Below, piece by piece: positions 2,863-42,587 of a stretch of DNA of 64,000 nucleotides (positions are counted from its first letter, which is position 1; each line of letters starts with the position of its first letter). The notes under the pieces are model-generated. The model was not told the origin of the DNA. It did no database searches and saw only the letters and a program-made list of their open reading frames with translations. Position numbers and translations under genes: made by a program. Source of the DNA: a virus; IMG/VR virus record IMGVR_UViG_3300045988_069781, positions 32,001-96,000 of that record. One strand, written 5' to 3'.

Positions 2863-2936
2863 AGAGTAAGAAGAGAAATCTCCTTACTTTCACGACCTTT
2901 TGGTTCATATTATTAAAATTATTAAAAGTAGATATT

Positions 2937-3018
2937 CACAGTATAAGAACTGTACTGTGTCTTATTAGGCTTATTAATCATTGTTAGGACGAGGGTTCGA
3001 TTCCCTCCAGCTCCACGC
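2937..3018 (+). ncRNA. tmRNA-like acceptor piece (T arm plus 3' acceptor strand) of a permuted two-piece tmRNA-like gene
   Basis: GGAC-GAGGG-TTCGATT-CCCTC-CAGCTCC-A (2987-3015) has the same layout as the 3' end of bacterial SsrA (E. coli ...GGACGCGGGUUCAACUCCCGCCAGCUCCACCA). No complementary 5' strand lies upstream; the partner is downstream at 3105. Confidence 0.6.
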
Positions 3019-3104
3019 TCACAAGAGCTACAAGGGAAAACAAAACTAGGATTTTTGATCGTGTTGACCGTGCGCCAAGTTTTTAAATTTTAGAACGGTC
3101 AAAA

Positions 3105-3240
3105 GGGGCTGCATGGTTTTGACTAGCAATTAGAGAGATAAGATAGGTTCATGTGTGTTTAAATGGCAACTATTCGTTTGTCACTGATTATTCTTACGTA
3201 GCGTAAGAATATGATGCGTGCTAAATACGAAAGTTAGGGA
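3105..3240 (+). ncRNA. tmRNA-like coding piece (5' acceptor strand, P2 strand, candidate tag frame)
   Basis: GGGGCTG-CA-TGGTTTTGAC (3105-3123) resembles the SsrA 5' end. It pairs with CAGCTCC 3008-3014, including a G3:U wobble. TAGCAAT 3124-3130 pairs with ATTGTTA 2980-2986. GATAAGATA 3137-3145 pairs with TGTCTTATT 2958-2966. The candidate tag frame 3165-3206 reads GNYSFVTDYSYVA-stop, and its stop lies in a 9-bp hairpin at 3190-3210. Confidence 0.55.
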
Positions 3241-3309
3241 TACTCTTTAGTTCAACAGGTTAGAATCGTGATTTATCACGGAATGTGGGTTCGAGTCCCA
3301 CAAGAGTAA
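3241..3309 (+). tRNA. tRNA-like gene with a truncated anticodon arm (anticodon not assignable)
   Basis: Acceptor TACTCTT/AAGAGTA (7 bp). D arm GTTC-AACAGGTTA-GAAT. T arm GTGGG-TTCGAGT-CCCAC. Only GTGATTTATCAC (12 nt) sits where a 17-nt anticodon arm should be. Confidence 0.55.
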
Positions 3310-3345
3310 CAATTAACTTATGTTTAATTTCTTAAAAGTAATCAG

Positions 3346-3724: not shown

Positions 3725-3919
3725 ATGGAACTATCTTATTGGATTTATTTTAAACCAGGTGAAAAAGATAAGCTTAAACAAATTATCGATGAAAATCCTA
3801 ATCCTTTAATGGCAAATATTGCTATTCAAGAGGAATTTGGTGTATCACTCACCGAAGCTGAGAAAATTATTGAGGTGTATAACAATAAAATTAATAAAAC
3901 ATGTCATCAAGAATCATAA
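3725..3919 (+). CDS. hypothetical protein
   Basis: 64-aa ORF starting 1 nt after the previous stop. Confidence 0.5.
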   Translation: MELSYWIYFKPGEKDKLKQIIDENPNPLMANIAIQEEFGVSLTEAEKIIEVYNNKINKTCHQES

Positions 3920-4335
3920 CACTTGATAAACCTGGTGTATATGTAGCAGAACATAATGCTACTAAAAAACAATACTTAGTAAGTATTACGGGACAATTAC
4001 CCATGTTACGAGTTGCTAACATCCTTGATTTATCTAACTTTACTTTTGGACTTAATTCAACAGTAACTGCTGTAGATAAGTTAAAGGAAGATATGCAGAA
4101 TGCTCCAAATGACTATACTTATTCTCCTCTTCAGGTTAAACTGGAAAGAAAAGCTGAAGAAGTAAAAGAGGATATTCTTGATTTATCCAGATATTCAACA
4201 TTAGCTGAAAACAAGGATAAATTACTGGAAATGGATGATAATATGGCGGTTATTAACATATGTAAAGACGAAGGTCTTGACGTAGCTACTGCCACTGAGA
4301 TTTGGAAACAATTCAAATTATCATTACGACCGTGA
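3901..4335 (+). CDS. hypothetical protein
   Basis: 144-aa ORF overlapping the neighbour by 19 nt. Confidence 0.6.
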   Translation: MSSRIITLDKPGVYVAEHNATKKQYLVSITGQLPMLRVANILDLSNFTFGLNSTVTAVDKLKEDMQNAPNDYTYSPLQVKLERKAEEVKEDILDLSRYSTLAENKDKLLEMDDNMAVINICKDEGLDVATATEIWKQFKLSLRP

Positions 4336-4886: not shown

Positions 4887-5453
4887 ATGAAAGAAGAAGA
4901 AAAGATTCTAATTGAAAAGGCGAAGCACGGTGATGAAAAGGCCTTTAAGCAATTGTATGATAATTATTATCGTTTAATACGATATATTATCTATGATGCG
5001 ATAAAAGATGAAGAAGCAACAGCTGATTTATTATCTGTTACTTTTACTAAGGCCTTCAAACGTCTCGATTATTTTGTTGAAACTATTTCTTTTGAAGCAT
5101 GGTTAAAAACTATTGCAGTAAATACAGTCATTGACTATATTAGAAAGAATAAGAACCAACAAGATAATATCTCTATAGATAATGAGAATAATGCAATTCA
5201 AATATCTAGTGATAACGATCCCGAAACTGATTTAATTAAATCAGAGTCAATAGATATTCTTAGAATTGCATTAACTCGACTTAGAGCCAAATATAGGAAC
5301 CTTCTAGAACTCAGATATTTTGGTAATCTAAGTTATGAAGAGTTAAGTGCTGAGCTTGGTATACCAGTTGGAACTGTAAAGTCTGACTTAAACAAAGCTA
5401 AGCATAGACTCAAGTATTATTTTCAAAAAATTTCAAAAACTAACAAAACATGA
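4887..5453 (+). CDS. ECF-type sigma-70 family RNA polymerase sigma factor
   Basis: Region 2-like segment YDNYYRLIRYIIYDAIKDEEATADLLSVTFTKAF...FEAWLKTIAVNTVIDYIRK. Region 4 HTH LRAKYRNLLELRYFGNLSYEELSAELGIPVGTVKSDLNKAKHRL. Confidence 0.8.
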   Translation: MKEEEKILIEKAKHGDEKAFKQLYDNYYRLIRYIIYDAIKDEEATADLLSVTFTKAFKRLDYFVETISFEAWLKTIAVNTVIDYIRKNKNQQDNISIDNENNAIQISSDNDPETDLIKSESIDILRIALTRLRAKYRNLLELRYFGNLSYEELSAELGIPVGTVKSDLNKAKHRLKYYFQKISKTNKT

Positions 5454-5913: not shown

Positions 5914-7311
5914 ATGGAAAATAATAAGAATAAAGGTCAGAAGACTGACGATAAAATAAAGAAAACTACTGCCGCTCCTGCGGCTGCACCGGCTGTACAA
6001 GCTAAGAAAGAACAGCCGAAGACTGGATTAAAGGAAGATAAAACTCCTAAACCCGCAGCTCCTACAGCTCCTAAGAAAAAAGAGGAAAAGGAGACAAAAA
6101 AGCCTACTACTGATGCTACTGGTACAGTAGAAAATATAGCAGCAGAAGAAGTAAAGAAACCTATAGTTTCTCCGTTAGAATCGCCTAAAGTAGATTCTCT
6201 GATTTCACTTATGGGCCCTAATGATCTGATGGATGCGAATCATGCTGCAGAATTCTTATCGGCGCTTGAGCGTCGTACTGCCCGGATGGATCGTAGTAAA
6301 CCTATTACGATTCAGATGGAATCCATGCTAGATTATAATATGATGTGGTATGCTGTACGTTTGTCTGTACAATCATTTGCACAGAAACGTGAATGCAATA
6401 TGCTTACACCAAACGATGAACTTATTGTTCAGCAAGCTATTGATACAGCTGCGTCTATGGGTGTTGCTCTTGAAGCTCATCCTACAGATGATCCTAATCA
6501 GATGCGTCTTGAGTTTAAGGATATTTCTCCTGAAACAAAAGCAGCAGCTGATGCAGAGAATGCCGCATCAGGTTTAGCTTCAACAGTTAAACCACCTAAA
6601 CATGTAAAACTTACCGAGGAACAAATGAATCCTCTGAACTGGAAGAATGATGATGAAGCAAAAGCTGCAATCACTCAAGATCTTCAAGAATCAGGAGAAA
6701 CCCCATCTAACAAATTCTTACGCATCTTGGGTAAAATCAAGACATATCGTGAGAATACTACGGAAGATCCCGTTCAGAAGGGAATCTGGAGTAGTGCTAA
6801 CTTGGGAGCTCTTGCAAAAGAATATTTCAACATCATTGGTAAGAAAGGTATTGTTGTACTCTCTGGACTTATGTCTTCTACCACAGCTTCATTGAAGTTA
6901 GGTCAGACTATGATCTTTGCACATTCTCTCTTACGGAAGAATATGAAAGGTCTGAATGATCAAGATGTAGTAGACCTGATTAAAGCGTTTATTGAAGTAA
7001 TGCACGCAGATCCTGCACAGCCTATCGAACAAGATCCTTGTGTAGTAAAGGGTATTTTGGCTCCAACTCGTGATACGTTTGTACGCATTGCGTTGCAAAA
7101 GCCGGCAAAAGATGAACTAATGGATTGGTTCAAGAAGATTATGGGACCGTTTTATGACATCTATAAAGATGAAGTAGGTTCTAAATCTGATGAAGATTTT
7201 GCTCTGAAAGCAGCAAACAAAATGATCGAAATACGTAACATGTATGTAGATAAAGAAGCTGCATTCCCACTCTTCACAAAAGAAGATTTTAAGGCTGTAA
7301 TGGGTAAATAA
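5914..7311 (+). CDS. hypothetical protein with a Lys/Pro/Ala/Thr-rich N-terminal tail
   Basis: 465-aa ORF. The first ~80 aa are a low-complexity basic AKP-type segment. Confidence 0.7.
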   Translation: MENNKNKGQKTDDKIKKTTAAPAAAPAVQAKKEQPKTGLKEDKTPKPAAPTAPKKKEEKETKKPTTDATGTVENIAAEEVKKPIVSPLESPKVDSLISLMGPNDLMDANHAAEFLSALERRTARMDRSKPITIQMESMLDYNMMWYAVRLSVQSFAQKRECNMLTPNDELIVQQAIDTAASMGVALEAHPTDDPNQMRLEFKDISPETKAAADAENAASGLASTVKPPKHVKLTEEQMNPLNWKNDDEAKAAITQDLQESGETPSNKFLRILGKIKTYRENTTEDPVQKGIWSSANLGALAKEYFNIIGKKGIVVLSGLMSSTTASLKLGQTMIFAHSLLRKNMKGLNDQDVVDLIKAFIEVMHADPAQPIEQDPCVVKGILAPTRDTFVRIALQKPAKDELMDWFKKIMGPFYDIYKDEVGSKSDEDFALKAANKMIEIRNMYVDKEAAFPLFTKEDFKAVMGK

Positions 7312-7324
7312 CCTATTATATCAA

Positions 7325-7708
7325 ATGAAAGGTAAATTTGCTTATTTAGCAGTATTCGTTGTAGGTCTTATTATGTCCTACAATACTAACATTTTCAAAC
7401 CCGAAAGTGTTACGGCAACAGAAACCATTAAAACGGTTCAGTTACCCCCAATTCCAGGTAATTTTAAACTTAACCTGGATTTAGAGACAGGTAAAAGTAT
7501 CGTGGAAAGTAATATACCCGTTACAAGTACTGATATAACTGTCAATCACCCCACGAAAATCGTGGAAAAGGTAGTGTATAAAAAATCTAAACCCAAAGTA
7601 GTATATGAAACAAAAACTGAGGTACAAACGAGACCGGTAATGTTTACTCTACCAACTCCCCGCTCTCACAAATTTGTACCTGAGTATCCTAAAAGTGTAG
7701 AGAAATGA
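7325..7708 (+). CDS. hypothetical protein with an N-terminal signal/anchor helix
   Basis: 127-aa ORF with N-terminus KFAYLAVFVVGLIMSY. Confidence 0.6.
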   Translation: MKGKFAYLAVFVVGLIMSYNTNIFKPESVTATETIKTVQLPPIPGNFKLNLDLETGKSIVESNIPVTSTDITVNHPTKIVEKVVYKKSKPKVVYETKTEVQTRPVMFTLPTPRSHKFVPEYPKSVEK

Positions 7709-7803
7709 AGCAAAAAATAACTAAAACTAATATAGTATCATTAATTGGTATTATTTTATTCTACTTATTTTGTTTATTTTTTGCTTATTGTATTAGTGAT
7801 TAA
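7705..7803 (+). CDS. small hydrophobic peptide (32 aa)
   Basis: ATGA overlap with the previous stop. MKQKITKTNIVSLIGIILFYLFCLFFAYCISD. Below the ORF-track cutoff. Confidence 0.3.
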   Translation: MKQKITKTNIVSLIGIILFYLFCLFFAYCISD

Positions 7804-9750
7804 CTGTGTGCTTACCGTAGAATGGCACCGGGGAAAACGAGTCTCTCCCCCGTAGTAAGAAGCAGGGCGATTCTATAATAGTGGTATTGTAGCTGTACAC
7901 TTTAAAAGCAACAAGACAGCATATATATATTAGGAATATCAAAGGCCAAGAGGATTCGTATATATAGATAAGTAATACAGGATATGAGAATATGATAACA
8001 GCTAACACTGTGATTCAAAAGGTAATATGATAGCTTACTGTGGATTTATTACTTTATCCATGAAACATCAGTAAGAAAATGGGATAGCGTGCTAAACCCA
8101 TAAAATCTCAGAGAACCGTCTGGCGGAGATTTAAAAAACGCGATCTAGGTCAGCAGACACGAAGACAAATTCAGCAAAGGTATCGGCATCCTAAAGTAAA
8201 TATAGTTATGAGATGTATTTATGAGTGTATTGAAGTCTACACAAAGGAGAAACCTATGTCCGTGGGTACAATCATGTACGAAATCAAGAAGGGACTAAAC
8301 ACGAGTTGCCCCTTAGTTAAACATCCAAAAGTTTACTAAGTTATGACTCCTGACTAACGTTCTTGGGTGTGTCCAAAACATCCATTCTGAATCTATTACT
8401 GGAAGGTGTAGATAGGATAAAATGCTACTGTAGTGTTCTCTATAAGGTACCAAATGGTTTAAATTGGAACGTATACTTAATTGTATATAAAAGTAGATAT
8501 GAAGGCAGAGAGATTAATCGAGGGTGCTATTAGGTGCTACGTGAAGAAGTAAAACGGTACAATTCCGTAATCTTTTATTCTTGGAAGTAAAGGATAATAG
8601 TCTGTATTATTACTTTGGAACATATGGCTGAGAGGCTATGATCCATACAATGAACTTTAAATTCATTAAATATAATAAGAATTCGAGACTTTTATTATAT
8701 TTAAGTATGATAGATTATCCGGATTAGGTGCCAAACCTATACTTAATAGAACGATTAATACAAATGTGTCAGTGTTTGCTTCAAGTTATGACACAATAAT
8801 ATATGGAAAGAAGCAGGTTGTAAAAGTGTCCTATAACACTAACTACAGAATAACGACATCCTTTAGCAAGATGGTTACTTCGCAAGAAGTGAGAGGGATC
8901 TCAATAATTTACGTTATCGAAAAGTTAAATACGCCGGTAGAAACACCGTTACCTGAGAAGAAAGGTAGAAGTACAATCAGATCTCAGTCGGCTTTCCGAG
9001 AGATAAAAGGTGAAAGTCGGGCTAATGTATAGTCAATGGGCTAAATTCAAGTCTGTTAATCCAGAGAAACGTAAATGTTATGATATTTACCTGAATCCAA
9101 CGATTCATCACTGGCCCGAGAGTTAACGTCACTCTTAAACAAAAGCGAGGATAATATGTTTAACCTAAGTAGTGGCTACGCCCACGAAATAACAAATCCA
9201 GGGGAGTCCCCGCTAGGGATAGTAGAATCTGCTGTTGTATAGTAGTATATGTTTCCTGACTGCGTCCTTGGCAAGCCAACCGTTATTGCTAAATAAAACT
9301 AATAGAGTATATTGCGCAACAATATACGTTCATTAGAAAGCGTTTCATGAATCTTCATAGACTGGATACCTGTCGTGCGGAAAGAGTAGTGAAAAGTAGG
9401 TGGAAGTCCTCAATATTCGTGCTTGTAAAACAATCCTATGGACGGTTATATAATAATATATATTGTTATATGTAATTCCGTATAGGAAACTTAAAACCGT
9501 TGCTGCATTTGTAGGGCAGAACTAGTTAAGTAACGTTAGAAAACGACCGTATCTGTAACGGATTCGATAAAGTGGTAAATATTAACTTCTGGGTAATTAT
9601 AAGTTACATGACAGGCCAATCTGCATGTGCAACTGTCTTGCAAACAGTTATTTGTATTTGTGATTACTTGCTGAGATTAACCCCGAGACGCCGGGAAATA
9701 CTAAGTTAATATGATGAGCAATAGTTCCTTTCTCTTAAGCGTAAGAGAAT
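7804..9750 (+). ncRNA. large ORF-free, GC-elevated region; candidate giant structured RNA locus (strand not established)
   Basis: The only ORFs of 60 aa or more across 7804-10189 are two that look spurious. Hand-counted G+C is 31/60 at 7801-7860, 27/60 at 8101-8160 and 27/60 at 9361-9420, against 14/60 in coding 14101-14160. Many tetraloop hairpins are present. Confidence 0.4.
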
Positions 9751-10189
9751 TGTAAAATCTAAAGTAATGGTATTATAATATGTATATTAAATGTCTTAGA
9801 TCTCATTAGTCTAAAGAAAAAGCTGTACAGTATCAATAGTATGATAAGCTATTAATTTATTATATGTAGACACTCGTATAAATAATATTAATTCTGGTAT
9901 CCGAACTACTTTGTAGAAACAAGGAATGCAGAAAGGAAGAGGAAGTATCTACCTTGATTTCGATGTAAGTAAATCATTAATATGAAGATTATGCGTTTAA
10001 AACGAAAATATTTATACTTTGTAAAGGATTGTACTTGAATGTACGTAGACGATTAGACATATCCTCTATATAATAAAATCTATACAAAGAGAGCAAAACT
10101 CGTTAATTTAAACTCATAAAATATGTAAATCAATTGTTTAACATCTCCGTAGGTGGAATCAACCACGGAATCAAAAAAGGAATTTAAAA

Positions 10190-10729
10190 ATGGATAAATC
10201 AGTTGTTTTGGCATCACAGTGTGGTGCATCATTAGGTAAATATATTCTCACTATAGAGAAGAACTCAGTAGATCCGAACTATTCACGGAAAGTACAGAAC
10301 AATGAATTACGGACTAGTCAGCAGATTAATCTGTATTCAATCAAACCTATTAAGGTTAAACTTGCTCAGGAAGTAGAAAGTGCCGAAGGTACTAAGTTTG
10401 TAGAATATAATGGCGATTCAAAGTTACGGCTTCAGATTTCCGGTATTAACGACATTACGGACATTATCCCGAAGCCCAACGCCGAAAGTGTAAAGAATGC
10501 GATTACTCGGTTTGAAGCAACAGGTGAGATTACAATCTTTATTGATTATCCGGCATTGACAAAAGAAATCGTTGCTCTGAATATGGAGTCACGGGCTAAG
10601 CTTACAGCATTTGTCAATGAACAGATGCGGTTCATTAAAACATTTGAAACTGCAAACGAAACTGAAATTGCTGCTTGTAAAACAGCAATGGCCGCTGAAG
10701 GTATCGAAATTAATAATTATTTCGGATAA
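10190..10729 (+). CDS. hypothetical protein
   Basis: 179-aa ATG ORF. Confidence 0.65.
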   Translation: MDKSVVLASQCGASLGKYILTIEKNSVDPNYSRKVQNNELRTSQQINLYSIKPIKVKLAQEVESAEGTKFVEYNGDSKLRLQISGINDITDIIPKPNAESVKNAITRFEATGEITIFIDYPALTKEIVALNMESRAKLTAFVNEQMRFIKTFETANETEIAACKTAMAAEGIEINNYFG

Positions 10730-13547: not shown

Positions 13548-13582
13548 TTATTACAGGGGTGCGACTGTTCAACGCACAATCT

Positions 13583-13654
13583 AGCGGGATGGCGCAAAGG
13601 TAGCGCGTAGCTTTCACGAGGCTGAGGTTGATAGTTCGAATCTATCTCCCGCAA
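13583..13654 (+). tRNA. tRNA-Val (anticodon CAC)
   Basis: Cloverleaf by hand. Acceptor AGCGGGA/TCCCGCA (A1:A72 mismatch). D arm GCGC-AAAGGTA-GCGC. Anticodon arm TAGCT-TTCACGA-GGCTG. Variable loop AGGTT. T arm GATAG-TTCGAAT-CTATC. Confidence 0.8.
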
Positions 13655-13965
13655 GGTCACTAAAGTAGATACTTCCACGTAGTGTGACTGGATTAAAACT
13701 AAAATCTACTTAAAATAAATAATATGAAATCAGAACCAGAACAAATCGCAGAAGAAAAAGGATATACAATAACAGATAAAGGTATTGTAAGAAATTAGGA
13801 TAAATATATCTAAATACGCTAATATGAAATATGATGAGAATTTAATAAAATCTATAAAAGAAGATAGATATAAAGGAATGTGTTATAAGGAATTAATTAC
13901 GAAATATAATATTAAAAATAAAAGTTCTTTATCATATATTCTAAATTGCAGATAACCATAGTACT

Positions 13966-15885
13966 ATGAAAATTAAAGGAAAGACTTGTGTAGTCTTTGA
14001 TATTGAAGTTTTAAAGAACGTATTTACTTGTACTTGTAAGAATACTGAAACAAAACAAATTACAGTATTTGAAATATCTCCAAGAAGAGTAGATATAGAA
14101 GATTTAGCTCTTACATTCTTCTATGAAGATTTCTATTTTGTAGGTTATAATAATATACATTATGATAATCCTATACTAAACTATATTATAATGTTATATA
14201 GAGAACATTATTTTAATAGATATAGTACTAGAGAATTAACTGAATCAATATTTAGAATGAGTCAATTAGTAATTGATAAAAATTCTGATTTTGATTTATG
14301 GAAAGAGTATAAATACGCTAGAAACTTCTTATCAATAGATCTATTAACAATGCTATATTCTAAAGCTTTACGAGTATCTTTAAAAGAGATGCAAGTAACA
14401 ATGCAATATAAGAATGTAGAAGAATTCGTAGTAGATTGGCATCAAGACCTTCCTGAAAAGGATATAGATAGATTAATATCATATAATATAAATGATGTAG
14501 AATCTACCGAAGAATTACTATATAGATGTAAAGATCTATTAGAATTGCGTATAGAAACTGAAAAAGATTTTGGATTACCTTGCTTAAGTTTAGATCGAGT
14601 AAATCTAGGAGATAGATTACTTCAATTAAAAGTAATGGAAAAGACAGGATTAAATAAGAAGCAATTAGAGAATATGAAATCTCCAGCTAATTATGTAGAT
14701 CTTGAAAAAGTAATATTTCCTTGGATAAAATTTGAATCTCCAATATTGCAAAAAAAGTTAACTGATATGAAAAATCAGCATAATGTATCACCAGGTAGAA
14801 AAGGATATATAAATACTTTTATGTTTGGTGAAATGAAAGTAACTATTGGAGTAGGTGGAATTCATGGTGATAATGGTACTTGTATTATTAAACCAAATGA
14901 AGATGAATTATTATTAGATAGCGATGTTAACTCACTATACCCATCTCTTATGAGAATGTATCATCTTTATCCACCTAAGTTAAAGGATGTATTAGGACAA
15001 ATATTTCCACAAATTATTGATGATCGATTAGAATTTAAGAGGACTGGTCAAAAAAACAAAAACGAAACATATAAATACATGTTAAATGGTGTATCAGGTA
15101 AAATGCAAGATGAAACATCTTGGTTATTTTCACCATTTACTGTTATGCAAGTAAGAATTAATGGTCAATTATTACTTTTAATGCTCGCTGAAAGACTCTT
15201 AAAGTTAGGATGCAAATTATATCAGATTAATACTGATGGTATTTTATATAAGCTTAAAAAGTCTAAATATGAAGAATTACAGCAAGTATTAAAAGAATGG
15301 GAAAAGCTCACTATGCTTACTCTGGAAACTGAAGAATTTACTCAGTTTTATCAATTGGCAATTAATGATTATTTTGGAGTAGAACCTAATAATAAAATAA
15401 AAAAGAAAGGATTCTTTCTGACTGATATTGAATTAGGTAAAGGTTTAACTCCTAAAATTATACCTGAAGCAATTATAAATTACTTTGTACATAATATTCC
15501 AGTAGAAGATACAATTAAGTCTTGTAAAGATATATGTAAATTCTTACAAGCTGAAAAAACTGGTAAACAATGGACAGTTGAGTATAATGAACAAATTCAA
15601 CAAAGAATTAATCGTTTCTATGTTAGTAATAGTGGATATTATTTATGGAAATGGAAATTAGATGATACTGGTAGAAAGTCTTATCAAATAATGTTAAAAG
15701 ATCATGGAGTAAGATTACATAATAAATTTTATTCTGATGAGGATCTTCAATGGAAATACTCTCAAGGAGAGACATTCCAAAGTATTTATGATATAGATTA
15801 TCAATATTATATTAATCAGTGTATAAAAGTAATTGAAAAATTAAAACCAAAGCAGTTAAATCTGTTTAATTTTGACGAATATTAA
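13966..15885 (+). CDS. family B DNA polymerase with 3'-5' exonuclease domain
   Basis: Exo I VVFDIEV, Exo II YNNIHYDNPIL, Exo III YNINDVEST. Pol motif A DSDVNSLYPSLM, motif B KYMLNGVSGKM, motif C INTDGILY. Confidence 0.85.
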   Translation: MKIKGKTCVVFDIEVLKNVFTCTCKNTETKQITVFEISPRRVDIEDLALTFFYEDFYFVGYNNIHYDNPILNYIIMLYREHYFNRYSTRELTESIFRMSQLVIDKNSDFDLWKEYKYARNFLSIDLLTMLYSKALRVSLKEMQVTMQYKNVEEFVVDWHQDLPEKDIDRLISYNINDVESTEELLYRCKDLLELRIETEKDFGLPCLSLDRVNLGDRLLQLKVMEKTGLNKKQLENMKSPANYVDLEKVIFPWIKFESPILQKKLTDMKNQHNVSPGRKGYINTFMFGEMKVTIGVGGIHGDNGTCIIKPNEDELLLDSDVNSLYPSLMRMYHLYPPKLKDVLGQIFPQIIDDRLEFKRTGQKNKNETYKYMLNGVSGKMQDETSWLFSPFTVMQVRINGQLLLLMLAERLLKLGCKLYQINTDGILYKLKKSKYEELQQVLKEWEKLTMLTLETEEFTQFYQLAINDYFGVEPNNKIKKKGFFLTDIELGKGLTPKIIPEAIINYFVHNIPVEDTIKSCKDICKFLQAEKTGKQWTVEYNEQIQQRINRFYVSNSGYYLWKWKLDDTGRKSYQIMLKDHGVRLHNKFYSDEDLQWKYSQGETFQSIYDIDYQYYINQCIKVIEKLKPKQLNLFNFDEY

Positions 15886-28661: not shown

Positions 28662-31600
28662 TTATTCACATTCTTTTTTACGTTGTTTACCCATTTTATC
28701 TAATTCCTCTGTAGCAGAATCATTTGCTGCTTGTTTCAAGTCAGCTGTAGTAGCAGATACAAATTCTTCATCTAAATCATAATCCTCTACTACTTGTTGT
28801 TTTGCTTTTTCTAAAGTCTGAACCATTACATAGTTCTTTGCTCTAGATACTGCCACATACTTCAATTCTTGTCTTACTTCTTGACCATTTTTATCATTAA
28901 ACCCAAAAGTATTTATACTACTGTCGTTAATTAAAACTTTACTATAAGTACCACCTTGAGATTTATGAATTGTGTGAGCATATCCGTAATCAAACGATTT
29001 TCTAAGCTTTAATCTACCGTTAGCGTCTTTGATATCTCGCATAGTGTGAATTTTATTTTGTATCCTATTAATTTTTTCAACAACAGATCTAGCTGCAGTC
29101 GGATTTCCCTCAGCTAACAATTGCTTACGCATACTCCACAAGGTCTGTATATATTCTTGAACTTTTATGATATTTTCATCTGTTTCAAAATTAGATACTA
29201 CATCAATAGTAAACGAAGAAGCAGAAGTATCTATTGCGTCTTTGAGAGTAACTTTATATCCTTCCATACTTATACTTTCTTTTCTGTCAGGATATGTTAA
29301 ATCAATTTGAATAGTAGTGGGTTTAACACTTTGCACTACGTAGTCTCCACTATTCATTAATTTGTATTTCTTTCTTAAAGAATCGTATTCTCTATTAGAA
29401 TAACCCATTACAAGTTCTCCTTCATACAATTGTGCTGGTCTCCTACCATACAGAATTTGTCTTATTGCAGAGTTATAAGCTTCTACAGAAGCATTTGTTG
29501 CAGCCAAGACTCTAAAATATAGAGGATCTTGTGAATCTTTCATTTCTTTTAATGAAGTTTTAACAAATTCTCTAATTCTAGTTTTGTCTGATGAATATTC
29601 AACTCCTTGACCATTAGGAGCAATGTCTGTTTCATAGCTAAAGCCTTCCCCATTTCTTACTCTAGTAGATTCTTTTAATATAGGATTATCTCCAGTTCTT
29701 TCTACTTTGGTTAACTGCAATTGTGCACCATCATTTCTAAATACTTTAGATATATTATTTGCTCTTACTGGTCTTAATTGACCTTTATCCCCCACGAATA
29801 TGATCTGAGCACCTTTTGCTGCAATTTGTTTAAGTAAGAAATCGTATAAACTATCTTGAATCATTGAAGCCTCATCAACTATAACTATTGAAGCATCTTC
29901 TATTTTAACAGCAGCTACTTGTTCAAATTTCAATTTGTGTAGATCAAATACATCTTCAGTAATATCAAAATCAGGACGCAATCCCAATAAACTTTGAAGT
30001 GTAAATACTTTTGCGTTTGGGGTTTTCTGTATAGTTACAGCGTTCGCTCTATGAGTTGGAGCTGAGAAAATAATATCTGCATGTATTCTACGCTTCAAAT
30101 ACTTATTAAATATACCCATAATAGTAGTCTTACCTGTACCAGCATAACCAGACAAAGTAATAGATGTATCATCTCCATTAACAAATGCTTCTAACTCTTT
30201 CAAAGCAGACTTCTGTTGGTCATTCAATTCAAAATCTAATTTAACTTCTAAACCATCATCAAAAGTATATACATATTTATCTTGTATTTGCTTAGTTTCT
30301 TCAACAGCTTGTTTTACTTCTTCTACTTTGGGTAAAGCTTCTGTTAAACCTACTTGACTGGCATATTGTTGAAGTTCAGTAAATGATGCGGCTTCACCGT
30401 TTCTCGATTGATAAGTCTTAGACCATAAATCAACATTTTCAGTAGCTACAGTCTGTAAAGCATTTTCATTGAATTCTCCAGCTTGGTTGAATATCTTAGT
30501 CTGTAAACTAGCTTTGACAGGAGTCAAATCTTGTACATAGGTTATAGCCTTAGATGGTGTAAAGTCTATGCCGGTAGGTACTACATTGTTATAACCTACA
30601 GAAGATTTCTTAAAGCCAAATTCAACAAGTACATTACCCTTATAACTTAAACCTTTCTTATTAATCAATTGATATACTGGTACTTTATTTTCATCTACAC
30701 CAATATATTTATATAAGAAAGTAGTTCTAGGGTCATTGTTCTTATCTAATTTAACCTTCTTATAAAGGTAATGTATAGGATCACCTGCTTCATTATAACC
30801 TACAATACCTCTGAATTTACTAGATTCATCATAGATTATAGAAGGTATTTCAACTTGTTCTCCTTTCTTATTAGTTACAAATAATCCACTACCATCATGA
30901 GCAACAGGTCTGTATACCGCTCTACCTTCTTCTTCAATAGTTTCATAGCTAGAATCCAATTTATAGTATTCAATAGCAGGAACTACGTGATCATTCCACC
31001 ACAGATTTCTAATTACTTCTTGTAAGTCTATCTGAGATATAACATTTTCTGGATGCTTTTCTAATTCTCTAATATAATCAAAATATCCTATTTCCTCTCT
31101 TATAGAGTTAGGAACATATCTAAATATATTGTTCTTACCGAAAGCATCTCCAGACGTATAGAAAGAATATATTGCAAGATCTTTAGCAAAGTCTCTTACT
31201 TCTTTATAATCACTTTCATAAAGTTCTTCCCAAGCACGAATTATTTCATTTTCTAAATTATTATCACCACTCTTATTGGGTTTATATGCAATGAAGTCAG
31301 GTCCTTGTAATTCTGCAGCATCTTCTTTAGGTCTACTAAAGATGTTGTTAATCAACACATTTGAAAAACTACCATCACTCCCAAGTAATGAAGGATATTT
31401 GCCTTGTAATATATCAGATTTAAGTCTATCCAATCTTCTAGAAATACTATCATTACCAAATAACATGCCACGGAATCCCATTTGATTATCTTTAACATAT
31501 TGATTAAAGAATTTAGTCTTATAGGATACTTCCATTGCTCTAGTGATATTGTTAATATATGTATCATCACTTACTGCATAGCCTTTGGTATAGTATTCAA

Positions 31601-32888
31601 TTAATGATCGTAAGGTTTCAAATTCTGGAGTAAGTCTAATCATGACATTCTGGAATGCATTTCTAGGAAATACTAATCCATCGATCATTTTCTTACCCAA
31701 GAATGTATTAGTAAACACTTTCAAAGGATTGTCGAAAACAGCCTGTTCAGTCATATACTGTTTCCATTTATCCAAGAATGCGCTTTGTAAACCAAAGTTA
31801 TTACCAAATCTCTTAGTATCAATTTGAGATAAGTTAGTTAATTCTGACAAACTCTTAGAAAATGGAGTTAATTCTTCATAAGCCTTAAGAATTAATAATT
31901 GATTATAGTACCAATCAAAAGTTTCAGTTTTCTGCAATTGTTTTCTAAGATGTGGTACAGTAAACATAGTTTTTCTTTGATTAGTACTTACACCTTTATC
32001 CTTAAGATAGTTCAGAAGATTCTCTTTCTTACCACCGGATAACTCTTTTGCTTTCTTATAGTAATCGTTCCAAATTTTAGTAAATGCTAATCTTTCAGGA
32101 TTTTTACCAGCAGGTATTTCAACACCATAAAAACCAGAATATTTATCATATTCAGTTGCATAGTCTTTTAATATCTGTTGAGGTAAGAAATAGAATGTAC
32201 TTTCACCTTTACCACTTCTAATTAAGAAGTTAGTCATGTTAAAAGTTAATTTACGTACATTCAAACGAATAATATATGGGTCTTTAGCTACGTCTACGTG
32301 AGCATTAATCAAAGCTGATAACCAGTCTAAAACATTGATCTTATTTGTATCTTCACTTTGAATGTGATGCAAATCACGTATACCATAATCATTCAATACT
32401 TTATTTGGTTTGAAATTCAATTTAACTAATTGAGTTAATACTTGATGAGCATTAGCTAACGCAAATGGACCAATACCAAACTTACCACCATTCAACTCAG
32501 CTTTAGTCCTACTCTGGAATGCTGGAGTAGAGAAATACAATTGAGATTTACTAGTTCTCTTACCTTGACCAGTTAATTTATCAACATCCTTAAGAATCTT
32601 ATCTTTCAGATAATCTGTCACAGTATCAAGAGGCTGTCTAGCTTCTGCAAAGTTCATAGGATTGCTAATTACTGACAAATACATATCAAGAAGCATGTTT
32701 TCATTTGCTTCTCTACTATTTGCTTCAAAATCAGTTTTACCATTGTATCTCTCATAAGCTTTTCTTACTACAGTTTCATCATCTAAACCAATAGCTTTCA
32801 ATCTCTGAACATACTGATCTTTTGTTTCGAACTTGATTCTATTACCATTATTGTCATAGTTATATCTTGCTATAAATAATTTATCAAT
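28662..32888 (-). CDS. virion RNA polymerase polyprotein, exon 2 (begins ...IDKLFIARYNY; C-terminal RecD-like SF1 helicase domain)
   Basis: The frame is open from 32888 to stop 28662 (1408 codons) with no ATG near its start. Helicase motifs GYAGTGKTT, IVDEASMI, FVGDKGQLRPV, HTIHKSQGGT and YVAVSRAK. Confidence 0.7.
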   Translation of the reverse strand: MDKLFIARYNYDNNGNRIKFETKDQYVQRLKAIGLDDETVVRKAYERYNGKTDFEANSREANENMLLDMYLSVISNPMNFAEARQPLDTVTDYLKDKILKDVDKLTGQGKRTSKSQLYFSTPAFQSRTKAELNGGKFGIGPFALANAHQVLTQLVKLNFKPNKVLNDYGIRDLHHIQSEDTNKINVLDWLSALINAHVDVAKDPYIIRLNVRKLTFNMTNFLIRSGKGESTFYFLPQQILKDYATEYDKYSGFYGVEIPAGKNPERLAFTKIWNDYYKKAKELSGGKKENLLNYLKDKGVSTNQRKTMFTVPHLRKQLQKTETFDWYYNQLLILKAYEELTPFSKSLSELTNLSQIDTKRFGNNFGLQSAFLDKWKQYMTEQAVFDNPLKVFTNTFLGKKMIDGLVFPRNAFQNVMIRLTPEFETLRSLIEYYTKGYAVSDDTYINNITRAMEVSYKTKFFNQYVKDNQMGFRGMLFGNDSISRRLDRLKSDILQGKYPSLLGSDGSFSNVLINNIFSRPKEDAAELQGPDFIAYKPNKSGDNNLENEIIRAWEELYESDYKEVRDFAKDLAIYSFYTSGDAFGKNNIFRYVPNSIREEIGYFDYIRELEKHPENVISQIDLQEVIRNLWWNDHVVPAIEYYKLDSSYETIEEEGRAVYRPVAHDGSGLFVTNKKGEQVEIPSIIYDESSKFRGIVGYNEAGDPIHYLYKKVKLDKNNDPRTTFLYKYIGVDENKVPVYQLINKKGLSYKGNVLVEFGFKKSSVGYNNVVPTGIDFTPSKAITYVQDLTPVKASLQTKIFNQAGEFNENALQTVATENVDLWSKTYQSRNGEAASFTELQQYASQVGLTEALPKVEEVKQAVEETKQIQDKYVYTFDDGLEVKLDFELNDQQKSALKELEAFVNGDDTSITLSGYAGTGKTTIMGIFNKYLKRRIHADIIFSAPTHRANAVTIQKTPNAKVFTLQSLLGLRPDFDITEDVFDLHKLKFEQVAAVKIEDASIVIVDEASMIQDSLYDFLLKQIAAKGAQIIFVGDKGQLRPVRANNISKVFRNDGAQLQLTKVERTGDNPILKESTRVRNGEGFSYETDIAPNGQGVEYSSDKTRIREFVKTSLKEMKDSQDPLYFRVLAATNASVEAYNSAIRQILYGRRPAQLYEGELVMGYSNREYDSLRKKYKLMNSGDYVVQSVKPTTIQIDLTYPDRKESISMEGYKVTLKDAIDTSASSFTIDVVSNFETDENIIKVQEYIQTLWSMRKQLLAEGNPTAARSVVEKINRIQNKIHTMRDIKDANGRLKLRKSFDYGYAHTIHKSQGGTYSKVLINDSSINTFGFNDKNGQEVRQELKYVAVSRAKNYVMVQTLEKAKQQVVEDYDLDEEFVSATTADLKQAANDSATEELDKMGKQRKKECE

Positions 32889-33164
32889 CGCTTGTACCCA
32901 CTGTTTCCAGTGGGGCTAGACTATATCTTCACTTTGATAGTGCTCCCCATTTCGCCTTTCGGCTACTCTACTTGCTTCTTCGATCATTTTTTGATCTATG
33001 CGTTCGATAGTCGTTGAACTTTCCCCTATACGGGGCTTAGCTGCTGATTGTCCAATCTCATTGTTTTTCAAACATTCGCACATATCTTTTCAGATTATGC
33101 TGTAGTAAATGAGCTCTAAGGGGTTTCCAGCAATTAAAGGAGTTTTACTTCAACTATGTTGTTA
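32889..33164 (-). mobile_element. group I self-splicing intron, ORF-less (boundaries +/- a few nt)
   Basis: Minus-strand RNA. Guide AGUUGAAGU (33147-33155) pairs with exon ACUUCGAUU, with U:G at GAU|U. GAAGAUAUAGUC core (32919-32930) pairs with GACUAU (33007-33012) as P7. GCC-GAAA-GGC (32954-32963). P9 CCCACUG-GAAA-CAGUGGG (32897-32914). Confidence 0.75.
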
Positions 33165-36100
33165 ATCGAAGTCTGACCCAGTAAGGGCTGTAAATTCATC
33201 AGGAAGAGTAATAGTATCACCAATCTGTTCAGGATAAACGTCCACCACTTTTAAAGCTGCTGTAGAAGCTTGACCCTGTGCAGGGATACGATAACCCATA
33301 GCTATTGCCTTTGTATCTGGACCAATTATATCGTGGTTTATTAACCACGCTTTAGCTTGACTGAAAGTCATTTTATCATAATTAGGTATGATGTGTTTCA
33401 ATAAGTTAATTGATATAACACAATCCATACTACCATCATTATTAACAAAATTAAGCTTTCTTACATGGTTGGCATCAGATGTTACAGCTAATCTATTATA
33501 TAAGATAGAAGACATCTGAATAAACATACCACCAGGTAGATTAGTATCTACTATGGCTTTATTCAACATTGATATAAGACCACTTTCAATCCAAGAATTA
33601 TCGGATAAACCTGAAATAGGAGCATTAGTGTTGCCATCTTCTACAGTAAGACCATTCAAAACATTATCGTTCATGTTTGAATTTTCTGCTTTTCTCTTAA
33701 GAATATTGGCAAACTTAACAATACTAGCTTGTGGATTATTGGCATCAATACCGAAGTCTTTTTCTATACTCTTTCTACCAAATTCAGTAATAGCATTATG
33801 TGCTCCATTGAAGTTATCAATAACCTCTTGTCCTGAGTAAGATACACCGTTGGGAGTAGTATATGTCCAAGCTGTTCTAATGTTACCCATAGCTGCTTTT
33901 TGAGCCTGAGATACAAACATCTGTCTATCTGCATGGTGTGGATCAGTTACTAGCTGACGTCTAAAATTAACTAAAGACTGTTTGTGAGTAGGCATATTCA
34001 TTAAACCTTCTACGTCTACCTTGGTATTTGATTTATCTGTGTAAATCTTAGATTTAACTTCTTCAACTCTTTGACCAACTTTAACTGCAGATTCAAACGC
34101 AAGCATGTGTATGTTTCTGGCTTGCATTACTTTTAATACTTCTCCCATATCCCCTGTAGAGAATATTCTATGAACTGGGAACATAGCCATTTTGTCAAAT
34201 ACGGGTATGTCTCTCTTTGCATTTACATCATAATGATCGCCGAAATACATTAACTTCAAAGGTTTTAATGTAACGGCTAAGGCTTCATTATAAGTATCTG
34301 CATCAGCTTCATAATCTGTTTCAGGGTTATTCAATATATCAAAAGCTTTAGCTACTTCAGGAGTCCATCCATCAATTCTTCTAACTAATTCTTTATAGAA
34401 TTCAGGAGAGATAAGTACTGTAGCATCCGTTTGGTTTACTTTGGTATAACCACCAAATTTACTATCAACTACAAGATTAGCAGCATCTTCAACGTCTTGG
34501 GGCAATGCTTCACCACTCTCATACATTGCAAGAGCTTCTTCTTGAGTCATATCATGCATTTCCTGTAACAGTCTTACTGCAGCTGACTTTTTAGCAAATT
34601 CATTGATTCTATCAAGCTGTCTACTAGGTATTACATTATCTGATAAAGTACCTACATTAACTTCAGTTAAGTTTGATAATTCATTACCTTCTCCATAATC
34701 TATTCTAGGAGTAACACCAGTTGACAATACCTCACGAAGACGTTTAATTTTATCTACAGGATCTTTATAATATGCAGGATCTTTAATAAATAACTTCTCA
34801 AATTCTATTACTGAGGATATAGTATTAGCAAAATAGTTTGCCATTAACTCTGTAGCAGCTAACTCTTTGCTGTATTTTGATACCTCTTGACGTTTTTTAT
34901 AGTGATTTTCTGCATCATCCAATGCCTTTTGAGGAAGCGCTAAGCTCTTTACACTAGCAAAATCCTTACCATTCCAATCAATTATACCTATTTCTTTTGC
35001 ATAATCCAATTCGTCTTTAAAAGCATCTGTTAAATATTCATTCATTAACAAAGCTTTATCAGAGTTACTCATCTTAGCCCAAGCTGCTTTTATTTGATTT
35101 ACTACGGATAATGCTAAGTCACTACCACCAATGTCTTCAGCAAGTTTAAGAGCTTCATTGAAATTAGAGAAATCATCTACAAATTCAATACCACCTAAAG
35201 TTGGTTGTTCTTTAAGTTTAAAGAACCCGTTGAAATATCTAAATCTGTAACCATTTCTATTACCAATATCATAGTTCTTTACTTTTTGTTCCTTTGTCAG
35301 ATTACCTTCATTCTTATAGTTGAATTCAATAGTATCTAATTCAGTTTCAAAGTAATTAATAAATCTGGTTAATACTTTGGCATTAAATTTAACTTGATTG
35401 TTAGTAGTATCTAAAGGTTGATTGAAATTGTTGATAGCTGTGCCATATAAAGTATTATATGTCTGAGAGTCACCCATAGTAGGTAAAACAATTCTACCTT
35501 TCTGAGTAAGTGTCATTTTAGCAATATAATCTTCCAATGGTGAGATTTCTGTATACTTACGTCCTTTATCACCACTACCCTGTTCCTTGAAATAAACCAA
35601 AGTTTCAACACCTATTTTACCAGATGCGGTAGGATTATTATAAAGATTTGTAAGTAAATAGGAACCTTTGAAATAATTAGGGTTAGCATTGTTACCAGTA
35701 TTATATAATACCTTAGTAAGAGCTTCTACTGTAGCTGGATCATTATCAAGATTCTGAACCATATCTGTTAAGTAGTTATGATCAGATATAGGATATAACA
35801 ACTTACCATCAGTAGACAATACAGACAACTCATCTGAGTTAGGATGTGTCATACCATACGTTTCAGACAATCTACCTAAGAATTTAGAATCATCATAGTA
35901 TCTGCTGATATGTCTATTAAATGTACCAGGTACATTACCAGATGGTTCAATTTTCAGTACATCTTTTAACTTATTACCAAATAAGAATGATAAACCAGCA
36001 TTACTACCATCAGTAAACAAATTTACTATTTGCTCTGCAGGATTTGGATCATAATATTCTTTAATCAAAAATGAATTTAATGTAGCCATATCTACAGATA

Positions 36101-42100: not shown

Positions 42101-42587
42101 TCGTGTTATACTTTTCAGAATTGGCTTCTAAATTGTTTTTAAGAATTTCATATTGCTGTAAGGTATTTTGATATTCTTGAGAGCTCTTATCCATAGTAGG
42201 TAAGACGCTTTCAAGATTCAAAAGCATTTTCTTATCATTTAAATATTGTAATTCATAATCAATATCTTCAATAACAGGATTAATGTCTTTTACTAATTTA
42301 GCTCTTTCAGACATCAGATTAATTTGATCTCTATTATTAGCAAAAGTAGTCCAAGCATCCCTTAAATAACTCTTATCCTTTAGTGTTTCTTCTGGAGTTT
42401 CTTTATTTAACAGATACGCATATTCATAATCATCTAATGGAGTTGTTTCTAAGTTCCTATCATAACCTGTTTTAATATTAGTGATAGGAGAATACTGAGC
42501 ATTGACCGTATCCATAGCCTTACCTAATAAGGCTGCTTTGCTAGGTGTATTGTCAGTAGGATATTGACCTAATATAGATTTTTCCAT
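33165..42587 (-). CDS. virion RNA polymerase polyprotein, exon 1 (3141 codons, ends ...TALTGSDFD)
   Basis: Giant ORF. The C-terminus GYRIPAQGQAST...ITLPDEFTALTGSDFD parallels NRxP...NADFDGD of two-barrel RNA polymerases. An internal HEAYH zincin-type motif is present. TAA 33164-33162 is assigned to the intron. Confidence 0.7.

Follow-up and report, generated by a model that had tools for sequence, protein, structure and literature searches.

The 64,000-nucleotide (nt) stretch analysed here, hereafter the window, corresponds to positions 32,001 to 96,000 of the IMG/VR virus record IMGVR_UViG_3300045988_069781 and is 97.5% identical to the uncultured phage cr55_1 (Crassvirales, Suoliviridae, Boorivirinae, Culoivirus); it is a Culoivirus, of the Suoliviridae or "delta" crAss-like phages. 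Within a tightly packed block, in which all neighbouring genes lie on the + strand, positions 7804-10189 form a gap bounded by the stop codon of a 32-amino acid (aa) open reading frame (ORF) at 7803 and the ATG at 10190. An earlier note on this DNA had suggested that the gap encodes a giant structured RNA, perhaps of a new class, or several RNAs in an array, and this reading is supported here on comparative evidence. As the note had stated, no ORF above 88 aa is present on either strand of the gap (ATG, GTG or TTG to stop); the longest stop-to-stop frame is 117 codons. The gap does stand out from its surroundings: no other stretch of the window lacking ORFs of 100 aa or more is as long (2,481 nt, compared to a median of 71 nt). 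The features that border it are:

4887-5453, + strand: gene for an extracytoplasmic function (ECF)-type sigma factor (Pfam Sigma70_r2, Sigma70_r4 and Sigma70_ECF; PHROG 1740), the constant upstream neighbour, 2.3-2.6 kb before the proposed RNA.
7705-7803, + strand: 32-aa hydrophobic ORF MKQKITKTNIVSLIGIILFYLFCLFFAYCISD, the upstream boundary, ending exactly where the non-coding region begins.
10149-10189, + strand: conserved pre-gene motif GGUGGAAUCAACCACGGAAUCAA, directly upstream of the 179-aa gene, with 93% identity over 44 nt to cr6_1, which belongs to a different subfamily.
10190-10729, + strand: 179-aa gene, the downstream syntenic boundary, with 18-46% aa identity across subfamilies.

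In the downstream direction the locus begins with the ECF sigma factor, followed by small gene(s), genes of ~470 and ~130 aa, the unannotated gap and two genes of ~180 aa. This common order was found, with a gap of 2.1-2.5 kb, in cr55_1, cr1_1, cr50_1 and cr10_1 (Boorivirinae), cr115_1 (Uncouvirinae), cr4_1 (Loutivirinae) and cr6_1 (Bearivirinae), and the same arrangement with a gap of 2.0-2.2 kb was present in four Oafivirinae genomes (human airway, macaque, human gut and pig); an ORF-free gap lies at one syntenic position in all five subfamilies of Suoliviridae. Both cr50_1 and cr10_1 have, at the corresponding position, a small ORF similar to that at 7705-7803, for which Pfam and PHROG give no family match. 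None of the flanking proteins except the sigma factor belongs to a Pfam or PHROG family, so that they give no functional clue. The genes flanking the gap (5914-7311 and 10190-10729, both +) evolve very fast, with 17-46% aa identity across subfamilies.

The locus is non-coding. The absence of codon periodicity that the note had remarked on is confirmed by substitutions relative to close relatives (92-97% identical in the neighbouring protein), which by codon phase number 50/49/60 in 7804-9650, as compared to 16/9/73, 11/6/48 and 31/20/116 in flanking genes (12/7/48 was also obtained for a neighbouring gene). The gap has accumulated 0.035-0.086 substitutions per site against 0.07-0.12 in two faster-evolving flanking genes, and the 88/117-codon frame at 8679-9032 is broken by stops or a frameshift in these same relatives. 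Reassignment of a single stop codon in the window opens nothing convincing (longest frames of 121 codons for TAG, 117 for TGA and 157 for TAA), five other subfamily representatives have no gap ORFs and similarly short frames under standard or reassigned codes, and gap ORFs were absent from 20 of 20 IMG/VR sequence clusters among the matches listed. The minus-strand "hypothetical protein" coding sequences (CDSs) annotated inside the gap of Bohxovirus (locus positions 9824-10330) and cr7_1 (locus positions 9861-10343), both Oafivirinae, contain stops in sister genomes and therefore look like spurious calls over the RNA. The GenBank record of cr10_1 also annotates a "hypothetical protein" (locus positions 3893-4078) within the homologous non-coding region.

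Decayed or unrecognised coding or mobile DNA, such as pseudogenes, recoded genes or the remains of introns that lack an ORF, could in principle leave such a region. Yutin et al. 2021 (PMC7886860) noted that recognisable proteins are missing from parts of some crAss-like genomes, and also described reassigned stop codons and numerous introns; the window itself has a group I intron elsewhere. Stop-codon reassignment, however, opens ORFs in none of the six subfamily representatives, and decay can account neither for islands better conserved than genes nor for the compensatory substitutions described below. Group I and II introns, which are common in crAss-like phages (PMC7886860), resemble the present element in size range and in having several locally closed domains. 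The degenerate intron material considered in the earlier note nevertheless finds no support, as no Intron_gpI, group II or other intron model matches the gap even at E≤10, no intron-encoded protein is present, and in every lineage the ORFs on either side are complete genes in their own right, which leaves no exons to join and nothing to splice across the gap. Decay or recoding is thus effectively refuted and its probability is negligible.

The two cues from which the RNA was originally proposed, elevated G+C content and visible hairpins, do not carry the argument. The G+C hand counts given in the note (31, 27, 27 and 14 of 60) are all exact, though a selective sample, and the claim that the region is far more GC-rich than coding sequence fails: the G+C content of 7804-9650 is 0.367 compared to 0.322 for pooled coding sequence, it is exceeded by that of five of 46 ORFs, the ORFs just upstream (6001-7200) reach 0.39-0.42, and the last ~540 nt (9651-10189) are AT-rich (0.288). 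The six hairpins quoted are all present in the sequence, the last beginning one base earlier, but they are not exceptional in number or stability, as 200-nt windows compared with their dinucleotide shuffles have a mean minimum free energy (MFE) z-score of -0.85 in 7801-9600 and of -2.0 in flanking coding sequence. These comparisons mean that neither cue separates the gap from coding DNA as a signature of structural RNA, and that the support comes from independent comparative evidence.

Sequence conservation is the first part of that evidence. The flanking proteins are merely 17-46% identical across subfamilies, yet the gap holds invariant or near-invariant nucleotide islands, namely ACAGGAU, AGCGUG..A.CCC, GAGAACCG..UGG.G, UAGUGUUC, AUGGCUGAG.GGCUAUGAUCC, GGAUUAGGUGC.AAACC, AACAUGUUUAAC, GGUGGAARUCC and AGUAACGUU..AAACGACC. 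In an alignment of the 20 clusters column identity in islands is 0.7-0.8, as compared to 0.5-0.6 in flanking coding sequence, and the islands alternate with indel-rich variable segments. The alignments thus indicate that the nucleotide sequence of the gap is under purifying selection, and the alternation is typical of structured RNAs, in which the core is conserved and the peripheral helices vary. The substitution rate relative to close relatives is lowest at ~7950-9450 and higher beyond, and conservation fades after ~9650. Family-wide conservation begins at ~7976, while covarying hairpins reach back to ~7812 in this genus. The constrained core is placed at ~7976-9450, possibly 7804-9650.

The distribution of the element was determined from domain 1, its best-conserved part. 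A DNA pattern from this domain retrieved at least 120 IMG/VR contigs, and a covariance model, R1, was built from 7976-8134 (162 positions, 38 pairs). On the window R1 gives a single match (7976-8133, 142 bits, E 8e-32), and there is exactly one copy per phage locus. Loci were also fetched by the sigma-factor protein alone, which removes ascertainment by the RNA itself. R1 matched 74 of these 79 loci, on the strand of the sigma factor gene and 2.3-2.6 kb downstream of it, and the five misses end before that position; all 74 loci long enough to judge have the RNA, always on the same strand. R1 also matches the four Oafivirinae genomes (E 4e-8 to 3e-15), in which the landmarks of domains 1, 2 (UAGUGUUC) and 3 (AACAUGUUUAAC-like) are ordered and spaced as elsewhere, with 900-1,090 nt from domain 1 to domain 3. 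When the DNA pattern was applied to bacterial genomes most matches were due to chance, in genomes of high G+C content, and R1 confirmed three of the 100 loci searched among the matches listed. The confirmed records include a 3.6-kb, coverage-1.2 contig of "Thauera sp. 2A1" and a 7.8-kb contig of a metagenome-assembled genome, "uncultured Clostridium sp."; as two of the three copies are on such short contigs they are probably stray phage DNA, contaminating or mis-binned.

Compensatory substitution is the second part. For 39 non-redundant homologues RNAalifold gives a consensus of 32 helices with 152 pairs. Scored in windows of 150 nt, the consensus fold has an energy of -4 to -32 kcal/mol over most of 7881-9680, compared to zero in flanking coding sequence and in shuffled columns. 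Raw energies were used, as z-scores from column shuffles are ill-behaved when shuffles have ~0 energy, and in windows 8481-8705 and 8856-9230 divergent sequences align too poorly for this scoring. The parts of the element and the spacer that follows it are:

7804-7975, + strand: 5' segment, with predicted helices 7828-7831/7844-7847 and 7848-7852/7881-7885, 77-82% paired with compensatory changes.
7976-8200, + strand: domain 1, the best-conserved core, with six predicted helices and two pseudoknot helices.
8256-8384, + strand: inter-domain hairpins 8256-8261/8292-8297, with 8266-8269/8276-8279 nested inside, and 8364-8370/8378-8384.
8422-8869, + strand: domain 2, 448 nt, closed by the long-range helix 8422-8426/8865-8869.
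8877-8890, + strand: hairpin ACUUC-GCAA-GAAGU, present in the sequence and specific to this lineage.
9100-9430, + strand: domain 3, with island AAUAUGUUUAAC (9153-9164), helix 9272-9276/9421-9425 and hairpin 9397-9400/9408-9411 (GGUGGAAGUCC).
9431-9650, + strand: 3' part of the conserved region, with helix 9440-9446/9485-9491 and island AGUAACGUU..AAACGACC (9529-9548); its structure is less certain.
9651-10148, + strand: variable AT-rich spacer (G+C 0.288), with column identity of 0.2-0.5 and many gaps.

Pairing was counted formally on sequence-only MAFFT alignments with slid helices and 500 shuffles as controls. In 7965-8200 81% of cells are paired compared to 37-49% with slid helices, and 36 of 47 pairs are changed on both sides compared to 9-21; this figure for domain 1 comes from MAFFT alignment A4, and on the covariance-model alignment A6 domain 1 is 90% paired (36-51% slid). 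In 8240-8880 (alignment A7) 75% of cells are paired (31-45% slid) and 141 cells are doubly changed (15-37 in controls), while the 62% of 9100-9625 (alignment A8; 37-47% slid) is weaker, still over controls. Over the five covariation tests together 62-90% of cells are paired against 9-53% when slid, and in each test none of the 500 shuffles matches the observed covariation score. When the slid control was repeated in Python on the 39-sequence alignment, each segment had 83-92% against 28-59%, and the long-range pairs taken together had 84%. A naive all-against-all search for covarying columns was too noisy (10 antiparallel stacks against three parallel); RNAalifold with controls was used instead, together with a structure-agnostic mutual-information scan with average product correction (65 sequences, effective number 20), which places the long-range helices 8422-8426/8865-8869 and 9272-9276/9421-9425 among its top pairs and adds tertiary contacts. 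The covariation that the earlier note had proposed as a check is thus present above slid and shuffled controls in every segment, and far above them overall; these controls are not phylogeny-aware. On these alignments ~30 helices are kept by compensatory substitutions, including one that closes a 448-nt domain and three pseudoknot helices. The findings that the note had named beforehand as speaking against an RNA, i.e., intact genes in relatives, a region neither conserved nor covarying, and long ORFs under another translation table, were each looked for and none was encountered.

Sequence conservation of 7804-7975 is limited to Boorivirinae, and the other subfamilies have different covarying hairpins upstream of domain 1, with the loop GAAGAKAAAY (read by eye); the segment may constitute a leader or peripheral hairpins of the RNA, or may be promoter-bearing, though the Bacteroidetes motif TAnnTTTG was not found in it. 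The helices of domain 1 are 7982-7986/8024-8028, 7993-8001/8008-8017, 8034-8041/8068-8075, 8042-8045/8057-8060, 8079-8083/8097-8101 and 8103-8109/8126-8132, the last around the invariant GAGAACCG..UGG.G. A 13-nt loop (8084-8096) makes two pseudoknot helices, GCGU 8087-8090 with ACGC 8138-8141, and 8091-8092 with 8174-8175, and this pseudoknot first surfaced in the mutual-information scan. The GCGU helix is 100% paired, and its one variable pair, 8088:8140, takes four Watson-Crick forms (CG17, AU2, UA2, GC1). Likeness of GAGAACCG and GGAAGUCC to RNase P or sarcin-ricin motifs was considered and rejected, as these segments pair locally by covariation and match no such model. The hairpins of 8256-8384 are 82-91% paired with compensatory changes in most pairs, and helices 2-5 are 75-100% paired on the independent alignment A7.

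Domain 2 contains the stem 8428-8444/8492-8508, the invariant UAGUGUUC (8431-8438), the island AUGGCUGAGAGGCUAUGAUCC (8624-8644), the hairpin 8725-8729/8735-8739 and an H-type pseudoknot, 8815-8817/8830-8832 with 8825-8828/8837-8840. Its closing helix, the strands of which are 443 nt apart, occurs as UGCU/AGCA, UAUU/AAUA, UGUC/GACA, UACU/AGUA, UACC/GGUA and UAUC/GAUA, and pair 8425:8866 is among the top mutual-information pairs and 100% canonical. Both helices of the H-type pseudoknot (8815-8840) vary with changes on both sides in A7, where the pseudoknot helices 12-14 are 87-96% paired. The hairpin 8877-8890 is considered peripheral, since 63% of the segment around it consists of gaps when the family is aligned. 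In domain 3 the helix 9272-9276/9421-9425 occurs in five versions (CAAGC/GCUUG, CUUGG/CCAAG, ACUGC/GCAGU, AGUAC/GUACU and ACAGC/GCUGU) and encloses the hairpin 9307-9314/9320-9327, which has a conserved GCAA in its loop and compensatory changes in all eight pairs. In 9431-9650 83% of cells are paired (36-48% slid; Python count, 39 sequences), with weak support on the independent A8. The spacer 9651-10148 has 0.07 substitutions per site relative to close relatives, like coding DNA, and a consensus folding energy at or near zero (-0.8 kcal/mol or weaker); it is probably outside the structured RNA and would be the likely place for its 3' end and for a downstream promoter. Of the interval 7804-10189 originally proposed the core part is therefore retained as structured, and the last ~540 nt are reinterpreted as poorly conserved spacer outside it.

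The paired positions of domain 1 tolerate 83 G-U and 44 A-C combinations on the + strand, and the alifold energy of the whole element is -147.6 on the + strand compared to -133.1 on the - strand. Together with the GCAA loop conserved on the + strand and the orientation of all neighbours this argues, with moderate strength, for an RNA on the + strand. The strand bias also bears on the idea that the element acts as DNA or as an RNA/DNA hybrid, e.g., a packaging site or a replication origin with a priming transcript like ColE1 RNA II. The element is just upstream of replication genes (DNA polymerase, 13966-15885), covariation of hairpins could by itself stem from single-stranded DNA, and ColE1 RNA II, phage origin primers and phi29 pRNA are likewise structured plasmid or phage RNAs of replication or packaging. 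These are, however, ~0.1-0.55 kb long with few hairpins, and the pseudoknots, long-range tertiary pairs and sheer size of the present element, as well as the ~2:1 tolerance of G-U over A-C on one strand, fit a folded RNA better. The gap has no iterons or AT-rich repeats and no inflection of cumulative GC skew is found here; an origin or packaging site is very improbable.

From the conservation and covariation it is very probable that ~7976-9450, possibly 7804-9650, encodes on the + strand a very large, multi-domain, pseudoknotted non-coding RNA (ncRNA) that is a signature gene of Suoliviridae. It would form a new family, matching no Rfam family, and in kind it would be one of the very large phage RNAs. 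Rfam 15 at gathering thresholds recognised nothing in the gap (elsewhere in the window RAGATH-22, a permuted transfer-messenger RNA (tmRNA), two tRNAs and a group I intron), and in a search of the kind suggested by the earlier note, in which 7600-10300 was compared with the full set of 4,227 Rfam 15 families at E≤10, the sole match was a spurious 16-bit one to RMST_3. No match to the GOLLD, ROOL, OLE, HEARO, intron, RNase P, tmRNA or rRNA models and no ARAGORN prediction falls in the gap, and Rfam at E≤1 found nothing in the gaps of five homologous loci.

The element is reminiscent of GOLLD RNA (RF01998), a large, multi-domain, pseudoknotted ncRNA of phages and prophages that was found by comparative genomics and has no known biochemical function, and of ROOL RNA (RF03087), a large ornate RNA from gut and rumen metagenomes and phage contexts with many conserved helices and a function that is not known. 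Membership of either family fails because there is no model match (at E≤10 for GOLLD); no sequence motif is shared with ROOL, and the present element is confined to Suoliviridae crAss-like phages. GOLLD is ~0.8 kb and ROOL ~0.6 kb in length, so that the present RNA, with a core of ~1.5-1.85 kb, is about twice as long as GOLLD and two to three times the size of GOLLD and ROOL overall. Both often adjoin tRNA genes in phage or prophage DNA, whereas the nearest tRNAs here (3241-3310 and 13582-13655) are 3.4-4.5 kb away; in other subfamilies a tRNA is found ~1.3 kb downstream, beyond two genes. OLE and other large bacterial ncRNAs (HEARO, raiA) also have highly conserved, complex secondary structure and functions unknown or partly known, but they are cellular or transposon-linked and at most ~0.6 kb, whereas the present element is phage-encoded and matches none of their models.

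The RNA would be transcribed rightward with the early/middle block (ECF sigma factor, tmRNA, tRNAs and DNA polymerase), either by read-through or from a phage-specific promoter. Within the gap no repeats, tandem repeats or promoter or terminator consensus were found above chance, and the Bacteroidetes -7 promoter motif TAnnTTTG is absent upstream in 18 of 20 lineages. The sequence GGAATA-N18-CGTATA at 7933-7962 (+), ~15 nt before the start of family-wide conservation, resembles an ECF sigma promoter (consensus -35 GGAAC/AAC, -10 CGT), but its spacing exceeds the typical one by 1-2 nt and the other subfamilies do not clearly share it. That it serves as a promoter for the phage ECF sigma factor (4887-5453) is speculative.

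As no promoter or terminator of its own was recognised, as the element shares its strand with both neighbours and starts a few nt after the upstream stop codon, and as a separately conserved motif directly precedes the downstream start, it might be regarded as a long structured 5' leader or cis-regulator of the operon from 10190 onward, or as a 3' untranslated region or processing platform of the sigma-factor operon. To our knowledge there is no precedent for a cis leader of ~1.7 kb with ~30 conserved helices and several pseudoknots, and such size and complexity speak against one, as does the ~500-nt poorly conserved AT-rich spacer between the structured core and the downstream gene. The RNA is also far better conserved than either neighbouring gene, and both forms of cis element are improbable. 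The motif GGUGGAAUCAACCACGGAAUCAA, which contains a 12-nt tandem repeat GGAAUCAAAAAA at 10155-10183, is probably a regulatory (possibly operator) or translation-initiation element of the 179-aa gene.

The cis element, origin or primer, and decayed-coding explanations fit the data poorly, and the main alternative to a single large RNA is an array of adjacent, independent structured RNAs of ~150-450 nt each, separately transcribed or processed, with which most of the data agree. Each of the long-range helices that have support closes a domain of its own (8422-8869, and 9272-9425 inside domain 3), at 3 bp the helix 7979-7981/8361-8363 is too weak to show that domain 1 is closed, and no covarying helix connects domain 1 with domain 3. 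On the other hand the domains abut without spacers and without promoter- or terminator-like signals between them, they are never found apart, there is one R1 match per locus, and order and spacing are held in all subfamilies; multi-domain RNAs such as rRNA and group II introns are likewise built of locally closed domains. An array is unlikely on balance, if far from negligible. A single transcript seems the more natural reading of domains that are contiguous and whose landmarks (domains 1, 2 and 3) keep order and spacing even in the most divergent subfamily.

Several observations weigh against a single large + strand RNA. No helix between domains 1 and 3 was found, which weakens the case for one 1.7-kb molecule, and A8, an independent alignment, did not support the long-range helix 9144-9148/9600-9604 proposed by alifold. 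The 3' third has weaker, alignment-dependent covariation, and the slid and shuffled controls ignore phylogeny, unlike statistics of the R-scape type. The stability of single-sequence folds is unremarkable, with MFE z-scores that fail to discriminate. The strand call rests on the ~2:1 ratio of G-U to A-C plus context, and over the whole element, at pairs shared by the predictions for both strands, the ratio is only 127:95. Finally, no promoter or terminator consensus bounds the element.

It is a serious, if tentative, possibility that the whole ~1.5-1.85 kb forms one RNA molecule. Ribosomal RNAs and introns aside, it would then be larger than any structured RNA known from bacteria or their viruses, and it would have an active role of its own as a catalytic or self-assembling RNA or ribonucleoprotein machine required by every member of Suoliviridae. 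The likeliest mode of action, itself tentative, would be in trans during infection, as an RNA scaffold or as an RNA-protein or RNA-only assembly like GOLLD and ROOL, rather than by base-pairing to targets or as a cis leader; GOLLD forms RNA-only multimers by cryo-electron microscopy (PMC12286853). If true, a family-wide and strongly constrained ~1.7-kb pseudoknotted RNA would approximately double the size of the largest known "ornate" RNA of bacteria or phages and offer a new target for cryo-electron microscopy. The element is also a highly conserved nucleotide marker for Suoliviridae, an abundant human-gut phage family and the most species-rich one among human-gut crAss-like phages. Text searches of PubMed Central and bioRxiv gave no description of a large RNA in crAss-like phages or of an ncRNA at this locus, and the terms for non-coding RNA, tmRNA and intergenic regions that were searched in a 2023 review of the order were absent from it. 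Several GenBank records place spurious protein genes on the RNA. The element also illustrates that gene-free phage stretches deserve screening for RNA genes before they are dismissed.

With RAGATH-22, tmRNA, tRNAs and the large RNA the early block of the + strand is unusually rich in RNA genes. The match to RAGATH-22 (2120-2299, +) has 120.5 bits, the gathering threshold being 120.3, and E 3.5e-23. The tmRNA is of the permuted two-piece type (Rfam 2958-3206, 58 bits; ARAGORN tmRNA* 2926-3297, +, with tag peptide GNYSFVTDYSYVA), and a tRNA-like gene with undetermined anticodon (3241-3310) overlaps the ARAGORN tmRNA*. A tmRNA is annotated at the equivalent place in cr115_1, cr130_1, cr7_1 and cr273_1. 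The group I intron (32897-33240, -, 78.6 bits) is located between the minus-strand ORFs 28662-32801 and 33162-42587, which may therefore be two exons of one very large gene.

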